64,000 nucleotides of DNA, from contig CAIWXX010000120.1 of assembly GCA_903916735.1 (NCBI GenBank), positions 75,746 to 139,745 on the forward strand. The letters are read 5' to 3'. This stretch comes from an uncultured Acidobacteriota bacterium (GTDB taxonomy: Bacteria > Acidobacteriota > CAIWXX01). This document shows positions 15,938 through 61,130 of this stretch, in pieces. The notes under the pieces are model-generated. The model had not been told where the DNA came from. It did not search any database and saw nothing but the letters and a program-made list of their open reading frames with translations. The stretch's first letter is position 1, and each line of letters opens with the position of its first letter. The position numbers were made by a program, and so were the translations under genes.

Positions 15938-16090
15938 TCGTCGACGGCAAGCCGCGCACCGGCGAAATGGCGATCGGCTCGTCGACGGCAGATCCGTGGC
16001 CTGAGATGCGTCGAGCCGACAGATTGAGGATGATTTTCCGCTCCCAGGCCGGCCGCTGCCGAAAAGGGACCCCTTATGATTGATTGCTCA

Positions 16091-16188
16091 GCAATGCAAA
16101 ATGGAAAATGCAAAATGCAAAATTCGAATTGTCCGGCCTCTCTATCACGATTCCGCCTTTTGTGATTTGCATTTTGCATTTTGCAATG
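16091..16188. repeat. Inverted arrays of the heptamer TGCAAAA (4 tandem copies on the left arm, about 3 inverted on the right) around a ~45-nt spacer
   Basis: Left arm tgcaaaatggaaaatgcaaaatgcaaaat (16095..16123); right arm atttgcattttgcattttgcaatg (16165..16188). Reverse complement of the right arm is cattgcaaaatgcaaaatgcaaat. It sits in the 380-bp intergenic region between the OMP gene and the DUF4390 operon. Confidence 0.8.
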
Positions 16189-17910: not shown

Positions 17911-18072
17911 ACCTCTTAGGAATGCAGGAAGTAAGGAAACCGGGAACGAACCGACCATCGTCGGCACACCACATTTTCCGTTCCTGCATTCATCTCTTCC
18001 TGCATTCCTGAGAGGTCTGGAGTCGCTCTGTAGTGCGGCCACCGTCTTTGGTTCTGGCTGCGCCAGGTTAGG
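17911..18072 (+). repeat. Copy A of a ~165-nt structured intergenic repeat element (second copy at 58975..59139)
   Basis: About 82% identity with copy B over the ~95-nt core (ccgttcctgcattcat...ttcctgcattcctgagaggtc...gtctttggttctggctgcgccaggttagg). An upstream arm cctcttaggaatgcaggaag is the reverse complement (one G-U) of the core cttcctgcattcctgagagg, so a ~20-bp stem is possible. It lies in an 850-bp gene-free gap. Confidence 0.75.
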
Positions 18073-18586
18073 AAAATCCTACTATGATTCGCAGTGCGGG
18101 TAGAAAAAGTCGCAGCATGTTCGAGTGTGAAACATGAACGATGCTCGAATTTTCAGCCAGTTTGGTTCCAGACACATCCACACCTGGTGTGAACCGCATC
18201 GTTTTCCGCTGGCATAGTTCTTGCTCCACCTGAGTGAGAATGAAAATGCATATGAAGCTGGAATTCACATGATTGATTCCCGCTTATCTGATCCACAATC
18301 GCCGATTCGCAATATGTCTTTTCACCAGGAACACTCAACGGATGAGGGGTTGTCATGCGTCTCACAGACCATCAGTCATCGAGGTACTTCGGCTGAGTCT
18401 GTCATGAAGACACTCATGTCTCTTCCTTTGGTGACAACACCGACATTCTTGAACTCAATAGAAGGATGCCCAGCGCGGCTTAGGAACAACCTCGAACGGA
18501 TCGCTGGGCAATACAGGCCGGCCCGACCTCCGGGAAATAATTGGAGTTGGAGAAGATGTGCTAAGCGAAAGTGGCGCCAGGGGCTG

Positions 18587-19501
18587 TCAAAGGCGCCTCT
18601 TCCCGGTGTTTTTTTTATGACGGAGAACTGTGGTGATGCCCTGGAGGTCGGGCGGGAGCGGTGCATCGAATTGAACCGGATTCTGATTGGCCGGATGATT
18701 GAACCCCAGATGAGCGGCATGGAGAGCCAGCCGGGGGACAGGCGTCGGGTCGTGCTTGGGGTCTCCATAGAGTGAATCGCCCAGCACAGGGTGTCCCAGC
18801 CAGGTCAGGTGAACACGGACCTGGTGAGTGCGACCCGTACCAAGGGTGGCCTCGATGAGTGTCGCCACTCCGTATCGTTCGATCGGACGCACGCGCGTCT
18901 GTGCATTCTGAGCATCACGTGAGTGAGTGACAACGGCGCGCCGAGCGCCGGGCCGTGGGCGGCCGATCGCACGGTCAATGGCGCATTCTTCCTGCAGGTC
19001 ACCCTGGACAAGCGCCAGATAGCAACGGGAAATTGTGTGCACGCGAAACTGCCTCTGCAGAGAAGTCACTGCCGCGCCGGTCCGAGCCATCACCAGCAGG
19101 CCCGACGTATCACGATCAATCCGATGGACCACCAGAATCTTGCTATGATGACCCACGCGTCGCTTCACTTCATCAGTGACTCGGCTGATGAGTGTGTCCT
19201 TCTCCCGGTCCAAGGTCGGATGCACAAGCAATCCTGGGGGCTTATTGACGACGACGATGTGATCATCCAAAAAAACGATTTCGATGTTTCGCAACATGGC
19301 CTCAGGCACGCGGCGTGGTAGAGCCGGATCATGGGTGATGCGATCGGACGGGCCGAGCACGAGCCCGGGATCGGTGACAATTTCACTGTTGACCATCGCA
19401 TGCCCGACTTCGACTTCTCTTTTGGCGTGAGAGTAGGAAGATCCCAGTATCTGCTGGAGCGATCGTGCAAGGCGAACGGGCGAAGATCCTGAATGAATCA
19501 T
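18587..19501 (-). CDS. RluA-family 23S rRNA pseudouridine synthase (RluD-like) with N-terminal S4 domain
   Basis: HRIDRDTSGLLVMART catalytic Asp motif; THQVRVHL; 304 aa. Confidence 0.8.
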   Translation of the reverse strand: MIHSGSSPVRLARSLQQILGSSYSHAKREVEVGHAMVNSEIVTDPGLVLGPSDRITHDPALPRRVPEAMLRNIEIVFLDDHIVVVNKPPGLLVHPTLDREKDTLISRVTDEVKRRVGHHSKILVVHRIDRDTSGLLVMARTGAAVTSLQRQFRVHTISRCYLALVQGDLQEECAIDRAIGRPRPGARRAVVTHSRDAQNAQTRVRPIERYGVATLIEATLGTGRTHQVRVHLTWLGHPVLGDSLYGDPKHDPTPVPRLALHAAHLGFNHPANQNPVQFDAPLPPDLQGITTVLRHKKNTGKRRL

Positions 19502-21317: not shown

Positions 21318-21608
21318 TCAGTTATCGAGCATGTCCGTGATTGCAAGTTTGAGCTGCGAGCGGGCGGAGGATTTCTGCCGCCAATTGAGGACGAGCAACT
21401 GTTTGAGTCTTGTCAGGAGCTCCCGCGCTACCTTTCCAATTTCGGCGCGTTCTTCCGTGGTCAGGTTCGGTGCAGGGCGAGTGAGGATGTCGAAGATGAC
21501 CAACTCCTCCTCCGTCATATTTTCGCGGACGTGGCGTTGCTGCTCGTCGGTCAGAATGCGGCTCAGTGCGATCAATTCGTTGAATAGTTTCTGAGTGTCG
21601 GCTCGCAA
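21318..21608 (-). pseudogene. Remnant of the type I restriction enzyme R subunit (HsdR) C-terminal domain
   Basis: 96-aa ORF (...EELVIFDILTRPAPNLTTEERAEIGKVARELLTRLKQLLVLNWRQK...) resembles the conserved HsdR C-terminal helical domain. There is no upstream helicase/nuclease portion. Confidence 0.5.
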
Positions 21609-47142: not shown

Positions 47143-48004
47143 ATGGCCTTGGTGCTTATGGCAGTTCTGTTGATAATATCGGCGGTGGCCGGCGCTCCGA
47201 TCGAGGATCAGGCCAATGCAGGCATGAGCCCGAACCTGGCGCCGCTTCTGAAAGATCCGATGATGGGAATCCGCATCGAGGCCGCGCAGCGGCTTACCGG
47301 CGTGCCTTCGGAGATGTTGACGGAGCCGCAAACAGATGCCTTCAAGTCGACCATGGCAGAGTACCGGTCAAGCCTGGAGTTTACTGCTGACATGCCTTCC
47401 GACCGATACAATCGGGGCATTCTGGAACAGAGTCTGAACCAATTGGGGGAGGCTGAGCTGTAATACAGAAAAGCACTCGACATCGACGGCCAATTTCTAC
47501 ATGGCAGCCATGAATCTTGCGATTTTGCTCAGCCAACAAGGGCGTAATCCCGAGGCCGAGACGCTTCTGCGACAGGCGGTTGACACAAACCCGCACAACG
47601 CAGCCGCAGCATTCGACCTTGGGCTGCTGCTTGCGGAGATAAGTAATAAGAGCGAGGCGCTGCAGCGGCTCTGCGAAAGGCGCTGCAAGCTGACCCGACC
47701 ATGGCGCAAGCCGCGTATCTGCCGCCGGGCGGCCGAGCAACGCCCGGGCGAGCCCAAGTATGCATTCGCCCGCGCCTACTACCAGCTTCGAAATGGAAAG
47801 GAAAAGGACGCAGTGGCCACGTTGGACCCGCTGGTGAAAACCTATCCATCCTACGGCGATGCCGTCCTGATGCTCGACGGGCTCTACGAGAAACATGGCC
47901 GTGTGAAGGAGGCCGCCGAGGTCTACGATCGGGCTTTGGTCACGACAGGGCTGCCTGAGGAGTACAGATCACAGATCGCGGCGCGGAGGAATGCCCTGCA
48001 CTGA
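47143..48004 (+). pseudogene. Frameshifted TPR-repeat protein gene
   Basis: TPR-like coding is spread over three frames (ORFs 47143-, 47501-, 47701-) with stops between, e.g. ...LNQLGEAEL* / YRKALDIDGQFL / AAMNLAILLSQQGRNPEAE... / ...AYYQLRNGKEKDAVATLDPLVKTYPSYGDAVLML... Confidence 0.5.
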
Positions 48005-48061
48005 TCGGATTCCATTTGTGCCTGAACACCCTTACCAGACGCAGCATCTTGTCGCAATCCT
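47855..48061. repeat. Copy 1 of a ~207-bp direct repeat (TPR gene 3' end plus downstream sequence)
   Basis: ggcgatgccgtcctgatgctcgacgggctctacgagaaacatggccgtgtgaaggaggccgccgag...ctgatcggattccatttg...gcatcttgtcgcaatcct is repeated at 49540..49746 with ~87% identity. Confidence 0.8.
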
Positions 48062-48276: not shown

Positions 48277-49440
48277 ATGATACAGACGCTGCCTCGGCTG
48301 CTGAAGATGAAGCTTCCGAAGGGGCAGTCCACCTTCTTGTGGGGACCAAGGAAAACAGGTAAGACCACTTTCCTCAAAGCAGCCTTCCCAAACAGCCTGA
48401 GCTATGATCTGCTTCAAACCGACCTTTTCCTCGAGCTCGTCAAGCGCCCCTCTCTACTGCGGGAGCAGCTTCTTGCGGCATCCCCGAAGCAATTGGCGGA
48501 GCCGGTCATTATCGACGAAGTGCAGAAAGTGCCTCAGCTGCTTGACGAAATTCACTGGCTGATCGAAAACAAGGGTATGCGGTTTATCCTGTGCGGCTCC
48601 AGCGCAAGGAAATTAAAACGGGGGAAGGCGAATCTGCTCGGAGGTCGCGCCTGGCGCTACGAGATGCACCCGTTTGTTTCACCAGAGGTGGCTGACCTTG
48701 ATCTGCTCAGAGCGCTCAACCGGGGAATGATACCCTTGCATTACATGCAGGTGGAATTCCGCAAGTCGCTGCAGGCTTATGTTCAGGACTATCTCAAAGA
48801 GGAGGTGTTCGATGAAGGATTGACCCGGAATATCCCGGCCTTCTCCCGGTTCTTCGATGCGATGGGCTACTCTCACGGAGAACTGACAAATTATGCGAAC
48901 ATAGCACGGGACTGCGGCGTCGACGCGAAAACCGTCAAGGAGTATTACCAGATCCTTGTCGATACCCTTCTTGGCACAATGATCGAGCCGTACAAGAAGC
49001 GGCAGGACCGCAATGTGATAATCAGGGCTGGCAAATTCTATCTGTTTGATGTCGGTGTTGCCGGGGCCATCACCCACCGCCAGATCCCGCAGGAGAAAGG
49101 CGAGCAGTTCGGAAAGGCAATCGAACATTTCATCCTGATGGAACTGCTTGCCCATCGTACGTACCGGGAGCTGAACTACGATGTGAATTTCTGGCGGACG
49201 AAGTCAGGATTGGAAGTGGATTTTATTCTAGGTCAGGGAGAAGTGGCTATCGAAATAAAAGGGACAAGCCGGGTCGATAGCACAGACCTGCGTCCACTCA
49301 AGACGTTTATCCAGGAGTACCGGCCTGCAAGAGCGTTTGTTGTCTGCAACGAAAATGTTGCTCGGGTGCACGAGGATATTCGTATTTTGCCGTGGCATGA
49401 ATTTCTTAGAATGTTGTGGAACGGGGAAGTGATATCGTGA
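48277..49440 (+). CDS. AAA+ ATPase of the COG1373 / DUF4143 family
   Basis: Walker A FLWGPRKTGKTT. Walker B VIIDEVQKVP. C-terminal DUF4143-like region. Visibly lower GC than flanks (about 50-53%). Bracketed by the 207-bp direct repeats. Confidence 0.75.
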   Translation: MIQTLPRLLKMKLPKGQSTFLWGPRKTGKTTFLKAAFPNSLSYDLLQTDLFLELVKRPSLLREQLLAASPKQLAEPVIIDEVQKVPQLLDEIHWLIENKGMRFILCGSSARKLKRGKANLLGGRAWRYEMHPFVSPEVADLDLLRALNRGMIPLHYMQVEFRKSLQAYVQDYLKEEVFDEGLTRNIPAFSRFFDAMGYSHGELTNYANIARDCGVDAKTVKEYYQILVDTLLGTMIEPYKKRQDRNVIIRAGKFYLFDVGVAGAITHRQIPQEKGEQFGKAIEHFILMELLAHRTYRELNYDVNFWRTKSGLEVDFILGQGEVAIEIKGTSRVDSTDLRPLKTFIQEYRPARAFVVCNENVARVHEDIRILPWHEFLRMLWNGEVIS

Positions 49441-49539
49441 ATGGAGAAAAATGTAATGAACGAAAGAAACAACCTCAACACGAGACAAGAGTCGCGTCGC
49501 GCCGCGCCGGATCCGCTGATGATCGACTTTCCGTCAGAC

Positions 49540-49746
49540 GGCGATGTTGTCCTGATGCTCGGCGGGCTCTACAAGAAACATGGCCGTGTGAAGGAGGCCG
49601 CCGAGATCTACGATCGGGCTTTGGTTCCGCCCGGGCTGCCTGAAGCATATAAAGCGCGGATCGCTGCGCGGAGGGATTCTCCGTGCTGATCGGATTCCAT
49701 TTGGGCCTGACCCCGCGCGCCAGACGCCGCATCTTGTCGCAATCCT
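49540..49746. repeat. Copy 2 of the ~207-bp direct repeat; includes a duplicated TPR C-terminal fragment (ORF 49441..49689)
   Basis: See copy 1. ORF 49441 ends ...GDVVLMLGGLYKKHGRVKEAAEIYDRALVPPGLPEAYKARIAARR, paralleling ...GDAVLMLDGLYEKHGRVKEAAEVYDRALVTTGLPEEYRSQIAARR. Confidence 0.8.
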
Positions 49747-51210: not shown

Positions 51211-52335
51211 TCAGACCAGGCCCTTCAGGAGTGTGAGAGCCTGGGCCACCCGTATCCCTTCCGGGCTCTGGTAATCCTTCGAGCCCGCTGCCGTAACCTG
51301 CCAGGCTTCGCATGCCGGGAACCGGGCTTTCATGTATCGCAGGCCCTTGTCGATCTCCTGATCCCCCCACTTGCACTCCACCATGAGGATGGGCTTCGTT
51401 CCTTCGACAACCACAAAATCGACCTCCCTTCCATCCGTGTCTCTGAAGTACCTCAGCTCGACGTCCCTCCCGTGGACATCCTGCTCCCAGTGAGCCCATT
51501 TGAGAAGGTGCGCGGCGACGAGGTTCTCGAAACGTGGCGCATCGCCCGGCACGAGCGTCCAGTCCAGGTGATAGTGCTTTTGTTCCTTTTTGACGGCGCG
51601 GATCCGCGGTGCTCCGAAGGGGGAGAGACGAAACACGGCATAGAGCCGTTCGAGGATCCCGAGCCAGCGACCAACGGTCTTATGGCTGAGCTGCAGGTCC
51701 TCGCGGATGGCGTTGATAGAGAGCGGGGAGCCGACCAGCTCGGGCAGGCGGATCATGAGCAACTCGAGGTTTCCGAGATCCTCGACTCGTTCGAGGCTGG
51801 TGATGTCCTCCCGCACGAGCCGGCTGCGGTATTCCCTAGACCACCGGCGGGATTCCACATCCGAACCTCCAAGAAAGGGCTCGGGGAACCCTCCGAGTCT
51901 CAGAAGATCGTTGAAGTCGCGAATAGTGACCATGTCCAACTCGGCCACCGAGAAGGGGTGTAGCCGGAGGAGATGGTAGCGGCCTTGAAGGGAATCCCCT
52001 CCATAGCGGTACAGGTCGAGGCGTGCGCTGCCAGTGACAAGGATTTTCCGCTGCGGCCGCCGGCTGTCGAACAATCCCTTGATGTAGCCGCGCCATGAAC
52101 GGTATTTATGTATCTCGTCGAAGATCCACAGAGGTCCGGGCGGAAGTTCGCGCCTGAGTATTCTCTCGCGGTCCTGCGCGACGTCCCAGTCAAGATATCC
52201 GGCACGTCCACCAGGCAGGCTCCTGACGAGAGTCGTCTTGCCGACCTGGCGCGGCCCGGCGATGAAAACCATCTTACGCCTGAGATCCTGCACGACCTGC
52301 GGCGCGAGATATCGCCGGAACAGCCTTGCCGCCAT
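51211..52335 (-). CDS. AAA+ ATPase of the COG1373 / DUF4143 family (second, GC-rich paralog)
   Basis: Walker A IAGPRQVGKTT. Walker B IFDEIHKY. C-terminal DUF4143-like; 374 aa. Confidence 0.75.
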   Translation of the reverse strand: MAARLFRRYLAPQVVQDLRRKMVFIAGPRQVGKTTLVRSLPGGRAGYLDWDVAQDRERILRRELPPGPLWIFDEIHKYRSWRGYIKGLFDSRRPQRKILVTGSARLDLYRYGGDSLQGRYHLLRLHPFSVAELDMVTIRDFNDLLRLGGFPEPFLGGSDVESRRWSREYRSRLVREDITSLERVEDLGNLELLMIRLPELVGSPLSINAIREDLQLSHKTVGRWLGILERLYAVFRLSPFGAPRIRAVKKEQKHYHLDWTLVPGDAPRFENLVAAHLLKWAHWEQDVHGRDVELRYFRDTDGREVDFVVVEGTKPILMVECKWGDQEIDKGLRYMKARFPACEAWQVTAAGSKDYQSPEGIRVAQALTLLKGLV

Positions 52336-54674: not shown

Positions 54675-55136
54675 ATGCTCTCACGCAAAGCAAAATACGC
54701 ACTCAAGGCAACGCTGATGCTGGCTCGGGAGCATGGTCAAGGACCGGTCCTGATTTCTGAAATCGCACAGAAAGAAAAAATCCCAAAGAAATTCCTTGAA
54801 CTGATTCTGCTCGATTTAAAAAATCACGGCATCCTTCAAAGCAAAAAGGGAAAAGGTGGGGGATATTTCTTGGGAAAGAGCCCCGAGTCGATAACTTTCG
54901 GGGCTGTTGTGCGGATCATGGACGGGCCACTCGCTCTGATTCCCTGCGTCAGCCTTACGGCCTACAGGAAGTGCGATGATTGCATCGACGAAAAAACGTG
55001 CGGAATCTGGCTCATCATGCAAGAGGTCCGAGACAACACGGCTCGGGTACTGGACGGGACAACTATTCGGGACGTGCTGAATCGACTTGACCGAAAAAGT
55101 CCGAAGGCAAAGGAGCCGGGAGATTTTCTATTATGA
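54675..55136 (+). CDS. Rrf2-family transcriptional regulator (IscR/CymR-like) with four Cys cluster
   Basis: N-terminal wHTH MLSRKAKYALKATLML...VLISEIAQKEKIPKKFLELILLDLKNHGIL. Cys ligand candidates in PCVSLTAYRKCDDCIDEKTCG. Confidence 0.8.
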   Translation: MLSRKAKYALKATLMLAREHGQGPVLISEIAQKEKIPKKFLELILLDLKNHGILQSKKGKGGGYFLGKSPESITFGAVVRIMDGPLALIPCVSLTAYRKCDDCIDEKTCGIWLIMQEVRDNTARVLDGTTIRDVLNRLDRKSPKAKEPGDFLL

Positions 55137-55216
55137 AATGGTTTCCTTTAATAGTCTACTTAAAAAATAGAATAAATAGATTTAACAAAATCAACAACGG
55201 CACTAAAAAGGAGTTC

Positions 55217-56677
55217 ATGATGCTGAAACGTTGGCTTATGGCCGCCGGCTTGATCGCCGGGGTATTTGTTTTGCCATTAACGGCTAGGGCTCAGGAGGTA
55301 AAAAAGGAAGACACTGCAGTTTCGGCGGGGCAACAAGAAGCTGCTGCCGATCAACAGCCGCAAACCGAGCCTACGGACAAAGAGAAGATCGAAGCCCTTG
55401 ACCAGAAGATCCGGGTTCTTGAAAGGCTTCGTGAAATCGAACAGGAAAAGGCCAAGGAAAAGGAGAAGACGGCGACGATTGTCGGAGCCGGCAAGGATGG
55501 GTTTTCAATAAAATCCGCTGACGGCGCATTTGTCTTCAAATTTCGTGGGCTGATGCAGGCTGATCTGAGGGTTTTTGGAGAGAATTCTCACCCGCCGATC
55601 GCAACGTTGGGATCCAACCCGACGACATTCACAATGCGCCGAGTTCGTCCGACATTCGAAGGGACGGTCTTCAATATCTTTGATTTTAAGTTCATGCCGG
55701 ATTTTGGAGAGGGGAAAACGGTCCTTCAAGATGCTTACGTGAGCGCTCGTTTTCTGCCAACCCTCGCCGTGGTTTTTGGAAAAATGAAGGAACCTTTCGG
55801 TTTGGAACGTCTGCAGTCGACCCAAAATATTATCTTCATCGAGCGGGCCTTGCCGACGGACGTAGCCCCTAACCGAGATGTCGGCGTGCAGATAACCGGC
55901 GATGTTCTGCATGGAACTCTGAATTACTCTCTCGGCGTTTTCAACGGCGTCCTGGACGGCGCTAGTGCCGATATCGACGTTACCAAAGGAAAAGATATCG
56001 TCGGCCGCGTTTTCGCGCGCCCATTCCGTCAAAACAGTTCGTCTCCATTGCAGGGTCTGGGATTTGGAATCGCCGTTTCAAGCGGGCACCAGGACGGAGC
56101 GCTGTCCACATACAAGACGATTGGACAGCAGACCTTTTTCTCTTATAGTTCCAGCACGGTGGGCGTCTCGAACATCGGCGCTGACGGAGCGCACACACGC
56201 GTTTCGCCACAAGGATATTTTTACCATAGCTCGTTCGGGTTAATGTTCGAATATTCGACCTCTTCTCAATGGATAAAGAAGGCAGATCTGGTGAAGAAAA
56301 CTGAAACCCGCGCCAAGATTCAGAATACCTCATGGCAGCTATATGGGTCTTACATTCTGACAGGTGAAAAGGCCTCTTTTAGCGGTTTCACGCCGGCAAA
56401 CCCCTTCAACCCGAAGGATAGTCACTGGGGAGCATTCGAAGTTGCCGCCCGCTATTCTCAATTCGACATCGACGATCTCGCTTTCTCGAAAGGTTTTTCT
56501 GATCTCTCCAAATCGGCCAGTCAAGCGAAAGCGTGGGGAGTTGCCTTCAACTGGTACATGAATAAGTTCATCAGATATGCGATTAACTATGATCAGACTC
56601 AATTCAAACGCGGCGCGGTCAGCGGTGACAGGCATTCTGAGAATGTGATCATGAGCCGCTGCCAGATCGCGTTCTGA
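55217..56677 (+). CDS. Anion-selective porin, OprO/OprP (phosphate-selective porin O/P) family
   Basis: Signal peptide [25 protein letters not shown]. Coiled-coil N-terminal segment, long beta-barrel region, terminal ...RCQIAF. The ORF track start 55133 overlaps the Rrf2 gene; the AAGGAG RBS favours 55217. Confidence 0.65.
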
Positions 56678-56724: not shown

Positions 56725-57735
56725 ATGTTGCTTAAACGTGCCGTCTTCGGGTTTCTGGCGATGGGCCTTATTCTTGCAGCCGCTCCGCTTCTCCGCTCTG
56801 CCGGTGAACCGGTAAAACTCCTCAATGTATCCTACGATCCGACCCGTGAACTTTATCAGGACTACAATGCCGCCTTTGCGAAGTACTGGCAGGCGAAAAC
56901 CGGGCAGACCGTGACGATCAACCAATCTCATGGAGGTTCCGGCAAGCAGGCGCGGGCCGTCATGGATGGACTCGAAGCGGATGTCGTCACACTGGCGCTC
57001 GGCTATGATGTCGACGCAATCCAGAAGGCCGGACTCATTGCCCCCAACTGGCAATCACGCCTCCCCAACAACAGCGCTCCCTATACATCGACTGTCGTTT
57101 TCCTCGTCCGCAAGGGCAATCCGAAAAACATCAAGGAGTGGGAAGATCTGGGCCGGAACGGGATCTCGGTCATCACGCCCAACCCTAAAACATCCGGCGG
57201 CGCACGATGGAATTATCTGGCGGCATGGGGATATGCGCTGAAGAAATATGGTAATGATGAGAGCAAAGCGCGTGATCTTGTCACCCGAATCTTCAAAAAC
57301 GTGCCGGTGCTGGATTCAGGCGCTCGGGGATCCACGACGACGTTTGTGGAACGTGGCATTGGTGATGTGCTGATCGCATGGGAAAATGAAGCGCTGCTGG
57401 CCGTCAATCAGCTCGGAAAGGATAAATTCCAGATGGTCGTGCCGTCAATGACAATCCTGGCGGAGCCAACAGTTTCGGTTGTCGATAAATATGCCGGAAA
57501 GCATAATACCAAAACTATTGCTCAGGCTTACCTTGAGTATCTCTACTCTGAAGAAGGTCAGCGCATTGCCGCGAAGCATTATTACAGGCCCCGAATGGAA
57601 AAAATCGCAGCCGAGTATGCTCATCAATTCCCGATCGCCAATACTTTCACAATCGACCAGGCATTCGGGGGATGGGCCAAGGCTCAGAAAGCTCATTTCG
57701 ATGACGGCGGGACGTTTGACCAGATTTACCAATAG
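56725..57735 (+). CDS. sbp: Sulfate/thiosulfate ABC transporter substrate-binding protein
   Basis: Signal peptide plus Sbp/CysP family signature regions ([12 protein letters not shown]...[12 protein letters not shown]...). Confidence 0.85.
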
Positions 57736-58089
57736 TAGATGCAGCAGAGGATGATCTCAGGATCCAGTGATCATCTGGGTCAACGATAGAGTGCGAGGGG
57801 AGCGTGGTTTGTGTTCAGGAGTCTTCATCACGAGACAAGATCCTCAGCTCAATCACGCTCTCTTCACAATGCCGGGCGTTGGAAATGCCCGGCCATATCG
57901 GGAGCGTCCCTATATGCACTCCTTTTGCCGATGCGGACATGGACGAGTTCCTTCTTCTTACTTCAACTCCACCAGTTCAAGAATCCCTCAACTAAGCCCC
58001 GGCATGATCTTGATGGTACCGTGTATCGACGGATGAGTGTTCTATGGTAATGTTGCGGGCTTGGCGAATTTAGGCTTGGAAGGGAACGA

Positions 58090-58926
58090 GTGGCAATTTC
58101 GCTGAAAAGGAGAAACATCCTGCCCGGATTCGGGCTGACGATGGGGTTCACGCTCCTCTACATGAGCCTGATCGTCTTAATTCCACTGTCAACAATTTTC
58201 CTGAAGTCGAGTGAGATGACGTGGGCTCAATTCTGCCACGTTGTGACGGCGCCGCGTGTGCTGGCCTCATACAAGCTCAGCTTCGGCGCCTCTCTCGTGG
58301 CTGCTCTCATCAATATCCTCTTCGGAAGTCTCGTCGCCTGGGTTCTCGTGCGATACTCGTTCCCATGCAAGCAGATCATCGACGGCCTCGTCGATCTTCC
58401 CTTCGCTTTGCCGACAGCCGTCGGCGGCATTGCCCTCACCACTGTCTACGCTTCAACGGGGTGGATCGGGCGACTCCTGGAACCCTGGGGGATCAAGGCT
58501 GCGTTCTCGCCGCTCGGCATTGTGATCGCTCTGACCTTCATCGGCCTTCCCTTTGTCGTCCGAACCGTGCAGCCTGTCTTACAAGACTTTGACCGCGAGA
58601 TTGAAGAAGCTTCGGCCACACTCGGCGCCAACCGCCTGCAAACCTTCATTCGCGTGATCCTGCCCGGCGTCTTGCCTTCGATCCTGACCGGGTTCACACT
58701 GGCATTCGCACGAGCCGTGGGCGAATACGGGTCGGTCGTTTTCATTTCAGGGAACATGCCGCTGCGCACCGAGATCGCTCCCTTCCTGATCATGACGAAA
58801 CTGGATCAGTTCGATTACACCGGAGCAACCGCGATCGCCGCGGTCATGCTCGTTGTTTCTTTCGTTCTCCTTCTGGCGATCAATATGTTGCAATGGTGGA
58901 GCGGCCGGCAAAAGGCTGCCGACTGA
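58090..58926 (+). CDS. cysT: Sulfate ABC transporter permease CysT
   Basis: Close collinear match to E. coli CysT (LPGFGLTMGFTLLY...DLPFALPTAVGGIAL...FVVRTVQPVLQDFDREIEEASATLGA). Confidence 0.9.
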   Translation: MAISLKRRNILPGFGLTMGFTLLYMSLIVLIPLSTIFLKSSEMTWAQFCHVVTAPRVLASYKLSFGASLVAALINILFGSLVAWVLVRYSFPCKQIIDGLVDLPFALPTAVGGIALTTVYASTGWIGRLLEPWGIKAAFSPLGIVIALTFIGLPFVVRTVQPVLQDFDREIEEASATLGANRLQTFIRVILPGVLPSILTGFTLAFARAVGEYGSVVFISGNMPLRTEIAPFLIMTKLDQFDYTGATAIAAVMLVVSFVLLLAINMLQWWSGRQKAAD

Positions 58927-58974
58927 AATCTGCGCATAAAATGGCGGAAATTGTGATGGAGCGGAATTGTGAAT

Positions 58975-59139
58975 ACCTCTCAGGAAGTCTGGAAGGGAGG
59001 AATGCAGGACTGTTTTGGTCAACCACCGCTGGCCGAAATAAAAGTCCGTTCCTGCTTTCATTTATTCCTGCATTCCTGAGAAGTCCGGAGTCGCGAGTAG
59101 TGCGACCTCAGTCTTTGGTTCTGACTACGCCGGGTTAGG
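58975..59139 (+). repeat. Copy B of the ~165-nt structured repeat element, filling the cysT-cysW intergenic region and ending 1 nt before the cysW ATG
   Basis: See copy A (17911..18072); core 59046..59139; upstream arm acctctcaggaag...ggaatgcaggac. Confidence 0.75.
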
Positions 59140-59140
59140 T

Positions 59141-60043
59141 ATGGGTGGAGGAATGACGTCCCCAATCATCGCAGAGCCGGCGGCAAAGGCATCGCGCACA
59201 ATCACCGAACCGCCTCTCGTCAAGTGGATGCTGATCGCGATCGCCCTCGCATTCCTCGCCCTCGTACTCCTCGTACCTCTTGTGGTCGTTTTCGATCAGG
59301 CATTTGAGAAGGGCATCGAGGTTTATTTCGCGGCCATTCGCGAACCCGATGCGCTGTCGGCGATTCGCCTGACCCTTCTCACCGCAGCAATCGTCGTTCC
59401 CCTGAACCTTATTTTCGGCCTTGCCGCATCGTGGTGCATCGCCAAGTTCGATTTCGTCGGGAAGAACATCCTGACAGCAATCATCGATTTGCCTTTTGCA
59501 GTCTCTCCGGTTATCTCGGGATTGGTTTTCGTTCTGCTTTTCGGAGCGCGAGGCATCTTCGGGCCATGGCTGATCGCTCACGACTTCAGAATCATTTTCG
59601 CTTTTCCGGGCATCGTCCTGGCGACGGTTTTCGTGACTTTCCCACTGGTCGCTCGCGAACTGATTCCTCTCATGCAAGCACACGGCATCGAAGAGGAAGA
59701 GGCTGCGATTTCGCTCGGTGCCCGCGGCTGGCAGACCTTCCGGCGAGTCACGCTGCCCAATATCAAGTGGGCGTTGCTCTACGGCGTCATTCTTTGCAAC
59801 GCTCGAGCCATGGGCGAATTCGGCGCCGTCTCAGTTGTGTCAGGACATTTGCGGGGACTCACGAACACCATGCCCCTTCATGTAGAAATTCTCTACAACG
59901 AATATAATTCCGTCGCGGCTTTCGCTGTCGCGTCGCTCCTGGCCATGCTGGCCATCGTGACGCTAATCGCGAAAAGGTTGGTCGAATGGAAGACACACCG
60001 GCCATTCCAGGCCGCCGACAGCATCCGTCAGGAAGAGGACTAG
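59141..60043 (+). CDS. cysW: Sulfate ABC transporter permease CysW
   Basis: Homologous permease fold with EAA-like loop (...[24 protein letters not shown]...). Confidence 0.9.
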
Positions 60044-60044
60044 C

Positions 60045-61130
60045 GTGAGCATTGAAGTCCGTCACGTGACAAAAAAATTTGGGACGTTCACGGCCGTCCA
60101 GGACGTCAGTCTGCAGATACCGACCGGCGAGCTGGTTGCGTTACTCGGGCCATCAGGCTCGGGGAAGACGACACTCCTGCGAATCATCGCCGGCCTGGAG
60201 GTTCCCGATTCCGGCAGCATTCTATTTGACGGGGAAGATGCCACGAGCCGTAGCGTCAGGGAGCGAAAGGTTGGATTTGTTTTCCAGCATTATGCGCTGT
60301 TCAGAAATATGACCGTCTTCGAAAATATTGCCTTCGGGTTGAGAGTGCGACCTCGGAAACGGCGGCCGACCAGCCATGAGATCCGTGACCGGGTTGACCG
60401 ATTGCTGCAGCTCGTGCAGCTGGAATGGCTGGCCGACCGCTATCCATCGCAATTGTCGGGCGGCCAGCGGCAGCGAATCGCTCTGGCGCGAGCTCTTGCG
60501 GTCGAACCCAAGGTGCTGCTTCTGGATGAGCCTTTTGGGGCGCTGGACGCTCGAGTCCGCCAGGAGCTGCGTCGATGGCTGCGGCGGCTGCATGACAATC
60601 TTCATATTACGGGCGTCTTCGTCACACATGACCAGGAAGAGGCCCTCGAAGTGGCCGATCAGGTGGTCGTCACCAACCACGGCCAAATCATTCAGGTTGG
60701 GACGCCGGAGGAGGTCTATCACAGGCCAGCATCGCCATTCGTATATAACTTCCTCGGCAAGGTCAATCTCTTTCATGCCCGTGTGGAAGGCGGCAAGGTG
60801 TATGTCGGCGGCATCCAGATGCCTCTTCCGGAAGACGCACATCCCGATGCCACGACCGCGAAAGTGTATGTGCGACCCCACCACTTCGATCTCCATCACC
60901 AGCCTGAGGGGAAAGGGCATTTTCGTGCCCGCGTTCTCCATATCAATCCTGCCGGGCCACAGGTAAAAGTGGAGCTTGAAACCGAGTGGGGTGAGGCGGT
61001 GCATGCCGAGATTCCGGATGAACGGTACCGCCAGCTTAAGCTTGAAAAAGGCGACGAAGTCTACGTGACACTCAAAGATGAAAAAGTCTTTATCGACGCT
61101 TCCGAGAAGCCTGATAGCAACCCTACCTAA
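60045..61130 (+). CDS. cysA: Sulfate/thiosulfate ABC transporter ATP-binding protein CysA
   Basis: Walker [10 protein letters not shown], signature [15 protein letters not shown], Walker [13 protein letters not shown]-terminal TOBE-like domain. Confidence 0.9.

Follow-up and report, generated by a model that had tools for sequence, protein, structure and literature searches.

A hairpin repeat between cysT and cysW of an uncultured acidobacterium, and the likeness of its tail to one end of a multicopy unit resembling insertion sequences

Repetitive extragenic palindromes (REPs) are tied to RAYT transposases, which are of the IS200/IS605-type Y1 kind. REPs are described as 20-40 nt long with a GTAG or CGTC head (PMC3733652), and Tobes and Pareja (2006, PMC1525189) present them as favoured targets of particular insertion sequences (IS). 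Three further reports (PMC11208160, PMC11187229, PMC12288879) describe this behavior for the IS110 family, whose members target REPs and lack inverted repeats. We were interested in a repeat, here called copy B, which lies between cysT and cysW in the sulfate-uptake operon of an uncultured Acidobacteriota bacterium. The DNA analysed is a 64-kb stretch of contig CAIWXX010000120.1, called the window below, and it holds a second copy of the repeat, copy A, about which the same questions can be asked. Copy B is probably selfish non-coding repeat DNA which was inserted in a short cysT-cysW spacer and is tolerated in the operon. Its last 27 nt match the terminus of a ~1.67-kb multicopy unit, and that unit looks like an undescribed IS-like family.

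An original prediction, made from the letters of the window alone, held that cysT and cysW are separated by 214 nt and that this space is taken up by the repeat. Both parts hold. The cysT stop codon is TGA at 58924-58926, the spacer is 58927-59140, and BLAST and pattern searches find the spacer repeat, 58975-59139, to be a second copy of the repeat at 17911-18072. The BLAST match of the spacer within the window is to 17977-18072, with 85% identity over 96 nt (E 4.8e-26) and additional cross-matches between the inverted arms. The two conserved blocks of the repeat occur in the window only at copies A and B, where 0-0.27 occurrences would be expected by chance from shuffles, and no shuffle reached the observed counts. 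One could still read the A/B similarity as chance, low complexity, an assembly artefact or a small conserved open reading frame (ORF), since an 81-aa ORF runs through copy B and a 108-aa ORF through copy A. However, the copies are offset by a 1-nt indel that changes the frame, and the translations diverge after PAFLR, for which reason a coding reading of the repeat was rejected, and the same spacing is present in independent assemblies. We give this explanation next to no weight.

The comparison with relatives that lack the element, which had been proposed along with the original prediction, was made with two contigs. In contig L032, whose CysW is 71% identical to the CysW of the window and whose genes stand in the same porin-sbp-cysT-cysW-cysA order, the cysT-cysW spacer is 20 nt long and has a well-placed GAGGAG Shine-Dalgarno sequence. 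In L017, a frameshift-ridden long-read contig with ~70% nucleotide identity to the window, ~24 nt lead from the end of cysT to residue 23 of CysW, meaning that the genes are adjacent. Since cysT and cysW stand next to each other or 20 nt apart in two relatives that carry the same operon, the 214-nt spacer comes out, at the level of sequence comparison, as an insertion relative to other genomes. The insertion is consistently present in recorded assemblies of this lineage: the long gap is found in all four recorded contigs which encode exactly this CysW. Ribosomal protein S1, encoded in the window, assigns the organism to Acidobacteriota: it has 84% identity to its counterpart in L035, an Acidobacteriota metagenome-assembled genome (MAG), and 66-68% identity to that of Vicinamibacteria; synteny in the region of copy A is not conserved in L035. 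The original prediction had offered, among its readings, a REP-like or MITE-like insertion (MITEs being miniature transposable elements with inverted repeats) tolerated inside an operon, and this is the reading which the short or missing spacers of L032 and L017 favor, together with the dispersed nature of the repeat and the homology of part of it to the terminus of a mobile unit.

Each copy consists of two modules, a hairpin of 106-110 nt and a tail of 55-57 nt (Table 1). The hairpin arms are tandem arrays of three to four 8-nt GGAAnnnn units (GGAATGCA, GGAAGTAA, GGAAACCG and so on), closed in both copies by the outer clamp ACCTCTYAGG / CCTGAGRRGT, which in copy B reads ACCTCTCAGG / CCTGAGAAGT. 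The loops are unrelated between the two copies, and each has a small stem of its own. Copy A folds into a hairpin with a minimum free energy (MFE) of -57.1 kcal/mol (z -10.75). In copy B the left arm is degraded, the 35-nt arms of the inverted repeat are 74% complementary, and the MFE is -43.7 kcal/mol (z -4.35), while the stability of the 234-nt region around it is not unusual (z -1.28). The tail carries in both copies a small stem-loop GTCGC...GCGRC, found as GTCGC/GCGAC at 59090-59106 in copy B, and its end is GTCTTTGGTTCTGRCTRCGCCRGGTTAGG. The similarity between A and B stops exactly at ...GGTTAGG. On the other side of copy B, GGAA-type 8-nt units continue leftwards to about 58945, and therefore nearly the whole cysT-cysW spacer may be repeat-derived, with the proximal part, 58927-58974, being weakly similar to the sequence upstream of copy A.

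The tail provides the link to a larger unit. When reverse-complemented, its last 27 nt match CCTAACCTGGCnnnGCCAGAACCAAAG, the very sequence that forms the left terminus of a ~1.67-kb multicopy unit, at 27 of 27 specified positions in copy A and 25 of 27 in copy B. A metagenome scan with the tail motif led to L019, a 1672-nt contig which stops 5 nt beyond the motif and on whose opposite strand a 523-aa ORF begins 18 nt within the motif. The unit is described here from metagenome contigs L019 and L021-L031, and the motif alignment covers the unit termini of L021, L022, L023, L027 and L031, a solo copy in L035, and the window copies. The pattern of the left terminus is CCTAACCYGGC-nnn-GCCRGAACCAAAG, and the motif in the form CCTAA[A/C/T]CYGGC-nnn-GCCRGAACCAA is found 45-48 nt upstream of the ATG in each of the four protein clusters fetched, which are 50-100% identical.

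Both boundaries of the unit can be read from copies which encode one identical protein, P0132, and whose flanks differ, with at least five kinds on the left and four on the right. On the left, identity starts exactly at CCTAAAC; on the right, 50 nt past the stop codon, it ends after ...GACGAAGCGAA / ...TTTCGGCAGGACGAAGCGAA. The contigs of four clusters show no terminal inverted repeats of the unit. Just 3' of the stop codon there is a hairpin, and compensatory changes between subfamilies keep it paired. The unit is flanked by 8-mer arrays such as GAAATCCG, and these fold into hairpins with CCTGAGCGG-like end clamps. Full-length units in L023, L024, L028 and L029 lie in or next to 8-mer hairpins, and copies A and B also abut a hairpin. 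For nearly all clusters of the unit's protein, the only known contigs measure 1.6-2.9 kb, as is usual where a multicopy element has collapsed. The sample accession of one family member, P0202, is ERZ1426830, close to the source samples ERZ1426812/43.

The boundary at which the A/B similarity ends, GGTTAGG, is the boundary of the unit, CCTAACC. This common boundary, the identity of the terminus and the adjacency to a hairpin are what suggest that the tail is a derivative or remnant of the 1.67-kb IS-like unit. It may be a miniature made of the left end and the right end, a remnant of the left end, or a member of a small family of solo motifs. A cognate unit which continued with CCAAAGACGGTGGCCGCACTAC... 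at its left end and finished in ...GCGACTCCAGA at its right end would make the tail a left-end plus right-end miniature.

Several observations weigh against deriving the repeat from such a unit by transposition. The window holds no full-length cognate unit and no gene for the 520-aa protein which the unit encodes. The tail matches the unit at one terminus, the right end not being recognisable in it: the 28-nt stretch which separates motif from hairpin has no clear match to the right ends of the full-length units examined, and GCRACTCCR within this stretch is common to the solo copy in L035. Neither target-site duplications nor terminal inverted repeats are found at copies A and B. The original prediction had suggested looking for such duplications at the element ends, and there is none around copy B (GTGAAT before, TATGGG after) or around copy A (GTCCGA before, AAAATC after); the ends of the composite are unrelated, and the only inverted repeats are the internal hairpin arms. 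The divergence between the copies is also uneven, with the right arm and tail 85-90% identical, the left arm ~68% identical and the loops unrelated, which misfits a simple recent copying of the whole composite. The copying might have involved the right arm plus tail (~96 nt), or the whole composite if its arrays evolve fast; how far the mobile unit reaches, whether tail, right arm plus tail or whole composite, is judged here from two tailed copies only. No known transposase or recombinase fold was recognised in the model of the 520-aa protein.

The remaining point on that side is the existence of solo motifs, which have neither the 520-aa gene nor an adjacent hairpin, and which leave room for the motif to be an independent small repeat or target site as opposed to a degraded element end. 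Copies of the 27-nt motif CCTAACCYGGCnnnGCCRGAACCAAA are located at 8892-8918 of L035 and in three IMG/VR contigs, at 4744-4768 of L037, 283-307 of L038 and 363-387 of L039, in unrelated flanks. In L037 the CCTAA of the motif overlaps the stop codon of a 686-aa ORF. The motif could then be a small host repeat, a REP-like stem-loop, which the unit captured or targeted, and the tail would owe nothing to an IS. The conservation of the motif fits this idea too: pairing in the 5-bp stem CYGGC/GCCRG is kept while the loops vary, and a fully compensated variant, CCGGC/GCCGG, is present in L031 and the IMG/VR copies. However, a single motif variant, with ATA as its loop and no more than one substitution, is found in eight copies of the P0132 unit in different flanks, as would be expected of a motif that travels with the unit and not of insertions into a different genomic target each time, and copies diverge immediately outside the motif. 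We regard an independent origin of the motif as unlikely, though worth keeping in view.

The 520-aa protein belongs to a large family, counting 9,801 cluster representatives (50% identity) at E up to 1e-3 and 1,135 at 1e-30. It has no match in Pfam, NCBIfam (E up to 0.1), PHROGs or the sequences of the PDB, and a few records name its family 'MarR family transcriptional regulator'. AlphaFold2 was used to predict its structure, with a mean pLDDT of 81, and the model has no whole-chain match in the PDB. According to Foldseek, the N-terminal two thirds of the model have a TATA-box-binding-protein (TBP)-like fold (BFVD E 1.6e-5; PDB probability 0.99), and the C-terminus is a winged helix. The invariant residues of the protein are D35, R36, D45, E93, H154, Y156, Y158, E258, Y259 and D262. 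The structure of the unit suggests that this protein may move it.

The hairpin module has a distribution of its own. The three strongest local inverted repeats of the window are copy A, copy B and a third, tail-less hairpin built in the same way at 16088-16188, which sits between two minus-strand ORFs. A strict-threshold scan for period-8 repeats gave no hit, as each array has only 3-4 units and these are degenerate. When a 19-mer from the arm was compared with one genome per species, it was found at 16 loci, about half of which are hairpins of like build, with arms such as CTGAGGAAAGCAGGAATTCAGGAAC...GTTCCTGCCTTCCTGCATTCCTGAGAGG. The MAGs which hold these hairpins bear the labels Acidobacteria, Chthoniobacterales, 'Deltaproteobacteria' and 'Rickettsiales', and some MAGs have two matches each. 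Since the hairpins occur under four phylum labels, either the hairpin element would have spread horizontally or the bin labels would be unreliable. The exact 19-mer TTCCTGCATTCCTGAGAGG was seen in 8-mer hairpins of seven GTDB MAG contigs (L003, L004, L006, L009, L011, L012 and L014), often at contig ends. The related MAG L035 has three such hairpins in 21 kb, two of them 150 nt long and built of GGAATKCG units, the other of TTTGCATT units. The two 150-nt hairpins, at 18774-18926 and 21347-21503, have near-identical loops ending in GGTGGTT[C/G]TGGC, and this shared end resembles the GGTTCTGGC half of the tail motif.

Literature searches by sequence string and by topic turned up no paper that describes the hairpin, motif or unit. 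We tentatively propose that the tail marks an undescribed class of mobile element, which is a possibility and short of an even chance: a ~1.67-kb unit without inverted repeats that homes to 8-nt-array hairpins in Acidobacteriota and other soil phyla and is carried by an unannotated protein family of predicted TBP-like and winged-helix fold, with the 55-nt tail as its non-autonomous miniature.

What the insertion means for cysW depends on where cysW starts. In the cysW frame there is a TAA stop codon at 59039-41, and after it no ATG, GTG or TTG until 59141, as read from the sequence and in agreement with the ORF list. A start upstream of 59141 is thus impossible, and cysW does not have the different upstream start which the original prediction had named as a point to be settled. 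The gene calls on record begin at ATG 59141 (P0124, 300 aa) or at ATG 59153 (P0001, 296 aa). The homologues of CysW have N-termini MTNP... or MTKA..., which resemble the MTSP... obtained from the second ATG. Because of the P0001 gene call and these N-termini, the native start is more likely to be ATG 59153 than ATG 59141, the first possible one. The tail ends in ...GGTTAGG at 59139, and the predicted distance of 1 nt to the cysW ATG is correct for 59141; it becomes 13 nt if the native start is 59153. From the end of the repeat the initiation region reads TATGGGTGGAGGAATG. Directly before the first ATG there is only AGGT, and GGAGG stands only 1 nt before the second ATG, where strong Shine-Dalgarno sequences elsewhere in the window are 4-10 nt upstream of start codons. 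The weak Shine-Dalgarno sequence of cysW is unexceptional here, because about half of the mechanically called genes in the window have no well-placed one. Downstream, 2 nt separate the cysW stop from the cysA start, and both frames are intact. The segment 59141-59169 is predicted to form a local stem in which UCCCC...UCAU pairs with the first cysW ATG and GGAGG, the second ATG being in a 6-nt loop.

The original prediction had also raised the idea that the element supplies or masks a ribosome-binding site, or acts as a translational insulator or cis-regulatory RNA. A dedicated cis-regulatory RNA for cysW, whether insulator, supplier or masker of a binding site, or attenuator, would be in keeping with the position of the element against the cysW initiation region, with a hairpin more stable than shuffled sequence, with the presence of the element in every recorded contig that has this gene, and with the predicted stem over the start codons. 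But that stem lies outside the repeat, and the spacer as a whole is not unusually structured. A search of Rfam gave no match in the spacer, neither with the gathering threshold nor with E up to 10, and the cysT-cysW junctions of L032 and L017 do without the element. Copy A stands in an unrelated intergenic region, antisense to both neighboring genes, whereas copy B is in the sense orientation. The ATG which the original prediction placed 12 nt after the copy A tail is indeed there, at 18085, and it opens a 17-codon ORF with no sign of being meaningful. In all seven other motif copies examined, copy A included, unrelated sequence follows, and on that strand no start codon comes directly after the motif. 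The antisense placement of copy A and the missing start codons after other motif copies thus speak against an RNA function that depends on orientation and is common to the copies. Since CysT and CysW work in a 1:1 ratio, there is no obvious need to uncouple them. A regulatory role of copy B is unsupported, because copy A is antisense to its neighbors and the copy B hairpin is degraded, and we consider a dedicated RNA of this kind very unlikely.

A scan for promoters and terminators found no site in 58927-59140, which led us to drop both an intrinsic terminator and an internal promoter for cysW; a U-tract is missing from the hairpin. Sigma-54 and extracytoplasmic function (ECF) promoter readings of the motif were set aside on inspection for misfitting spacing. 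An integron attC site was likewise rejected by inspection: although GTTRRRY is matched by the end of the copy B tail, the left end lacks an inverse core and a cassette context is missing. A blastn search of a plasmid collection with the spacer gave no match.

A weaker form of influence would be passive co-option, in which the hairpin blocks 3'-5' exonucleases or gives a processing site and so raises cysP-cysT over cysW-cysA. E. coli REP elements stabilise upstream mRNA in polycistronic transcripts (malE-malF), and by analogy a stable hairpin in the sense orientation within the operon, with no terminator U-tract and thus with read-through possible, could do the same here. Against this, the copy B hairpin has been decaying relative to copy A, contrary to selection for structure. 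Passive co-option seems rather improbable to us as the explanation of the element, and it is compatible, as a side-effect, with an insertion that is merely tolerated.

For the tolerated insertion the following course of events would fit. Module 1, the long 8-nt-array hairpin, is the local equivalent of palindromic repeats of the REP or bacterial interspersed mosaic element (BIME) type. Module 2, the 55-nt tail, would be a miniature or remnant derivative of the 1.67-kb unit, lodged beside its preferred target. Transposition or recombination may then have brought the composite to the cys operon. Because the element has no promoter- or terminator-like signal, it is most likely co-transcribed with cysPTWA by read-through, and cysW would be translated from an initiation region beginning 1-13 nt after the repeat. 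Any effects on expression, such as lost translational coupling between cysT and cysW or hairpin-dependent mRNA stability, would be a by-product and not a designed function, and for cysW itself the insertion would be neutral.

For the cys operon this means little. It is one more repeat surviving between co-transcribed genes, which at most uncouples cysT-cysW translation and adds an RNA hairpin. The operon insertion looks ordinary, while the hairpin-associated unit behind copy B looks undescribed, and the wider leads come from there: an 8-nt-array hairpin repeat present in MAGs labelled as several soil phyla, and a large protein family, unnamed or called 'MarR family regulator', which behaves like an insertion sequence specialised on 8-mer hairpins. 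If the unit is mobile, it would be a new family of prokaryotic mobile elements with possibly a new mechanism, and it would explain many contig breaks in soil metagenome assemblies.

Table 1. Positions of the repeat modules and of the sulfate-uptake genes in the window
Feature	Position	Strand	Description
Copy A hairpin	17911-18016	+	near-perfect arms of at least 21 bp (CCTCTTAGGAATGCAGGAAG / CTTCCTGCATTCCTGAGAGG)
Copy A tail	18017-18072	+	left-terminus motif at 18046-18072, minus strand, = CCTAACCTGGCGCAGCCAGAACCAAAG
Third hairpin	16088-16188		AATGCAAA 8-mers, CTCAG.../...TGAGG clamp, tail-less
Proximal spacer part	58927-58974	+	degenerate GGAAATTG / CGGAATTG units that keep the 8-nt register of the hairpin left arm
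Copy B hairpin	58975-59084	+	left arm 58975-59009, right arm 59050-59084, loop with its own 9-bp stem
Copy B tail	59085-59139	+	CCGGAGTCGCGAGTAGTGCGACCTCAGTCTTTGGTTCTGACTACGCCGGGTTAGG; 86-90% identical to 18017-18072
Copy B left-terminus motif, 27 nt	59113-59139	-	CCTAACCCGGCGTAGTCAGAACCAAAG, compared with CCTAACCTGGCnnnGCCAGAACCAAAG
Porin_O_P gene	55133-56677	+	first gene of the sulfate-uptake operon
Sulfate-binding protein gene (sbp)	56725-57735	+	upstream of cysT
cysT, sulfate ABC transporter permease	58090-58926	+	ORF list; NCBIfam TIGR02139 CysT, 418 bits (cut-off 246)
cysW	59141-60043	+	ORF list; NCBIfam TIGR02140, 415 bits (cut-off 329)
cysA	60045-61130	+	downstream of cysW

The sbp-cysT spacer, 57736-58089, is 354 nt long in the window and 83 nt in L032. 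It is unique sequence with no repeat match, it is predicted to be highly structured (-125 kcal/mol), and it may be a second insertion or a leader. Elsewhere in the window, a 246-nt direct repeat (47816-48061 and 49501-49746, 82% identity) flanks an AAA_14/DUF4143 ATPase gene at 48277-49440 and resembles the 3' end of a coding region. A second AAA_14/DUF4143-type ATPase is encoded on the minus strand at 51211-52335.

Compared with the described systems, the repeat is closest in behavior to REPs and BIMEs, with which it shares being a non-coding, dispersed extragenic palindrome that is tolerated between co-transcribed genes and can form RNA hairpins in polycistronic mRNA. It differs from them in size, the window hairpins being 106-110 nt with 35-43-nt arms of tandem 8-nt units and a CTCAGG/CCTGAG clamp, as against 20-40 nt, and in its head, since the hairpin ends are ACCTCTYAGG / CCTGAGRRGT and GTAG occurs only inside the small loop of the tail. 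In copy number, there are three hairpins per 64 kb here and three per 21 kb in L035, figures for these stretches and not for whole genomes. No RAYT gene was noticed among the window ORFs examined, in which no search was aimed at RAYT.

The likeness to MITEs and to Correia and ERIC elements is that of a small, non-coding, multicopy sequence with one end matching that of a larger protein-coding unit, found in operons and beside start codons. In contrast to MITEs, the unit shared by A and B has no terminal inverted repeats (ACCTCT... at one end, ...GGTTAGG at the other) and no target-site duplication, and only one end of its putative parent unit is recognisable. The 1.67-kb unit is in turn like the IS110/IS1111 group (IS621, ISPpu9/10) in having no inverted repeats, a single ORF and insertion into palindromic host repeats. 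Unlike that group, its 520-aa protein has no DEDD/IS110 domains (PF01548 / PF02371) and no Pfam or NCBIfam match at E up to 0.1, and its non-coding ends of ~47 and ~50 nt are too short for a bridge RNA or seekRNA of known type. The element thus fails the defining features of each family, namely size, GTAG head, inverted termini, target-site duplication and DEDD domains. By analogy of function it nonetheless behaves like a REP/BIME or MITE insertion, and its putative parent unit behaves like the REP-targeting insertion sequences of the IS110 type.

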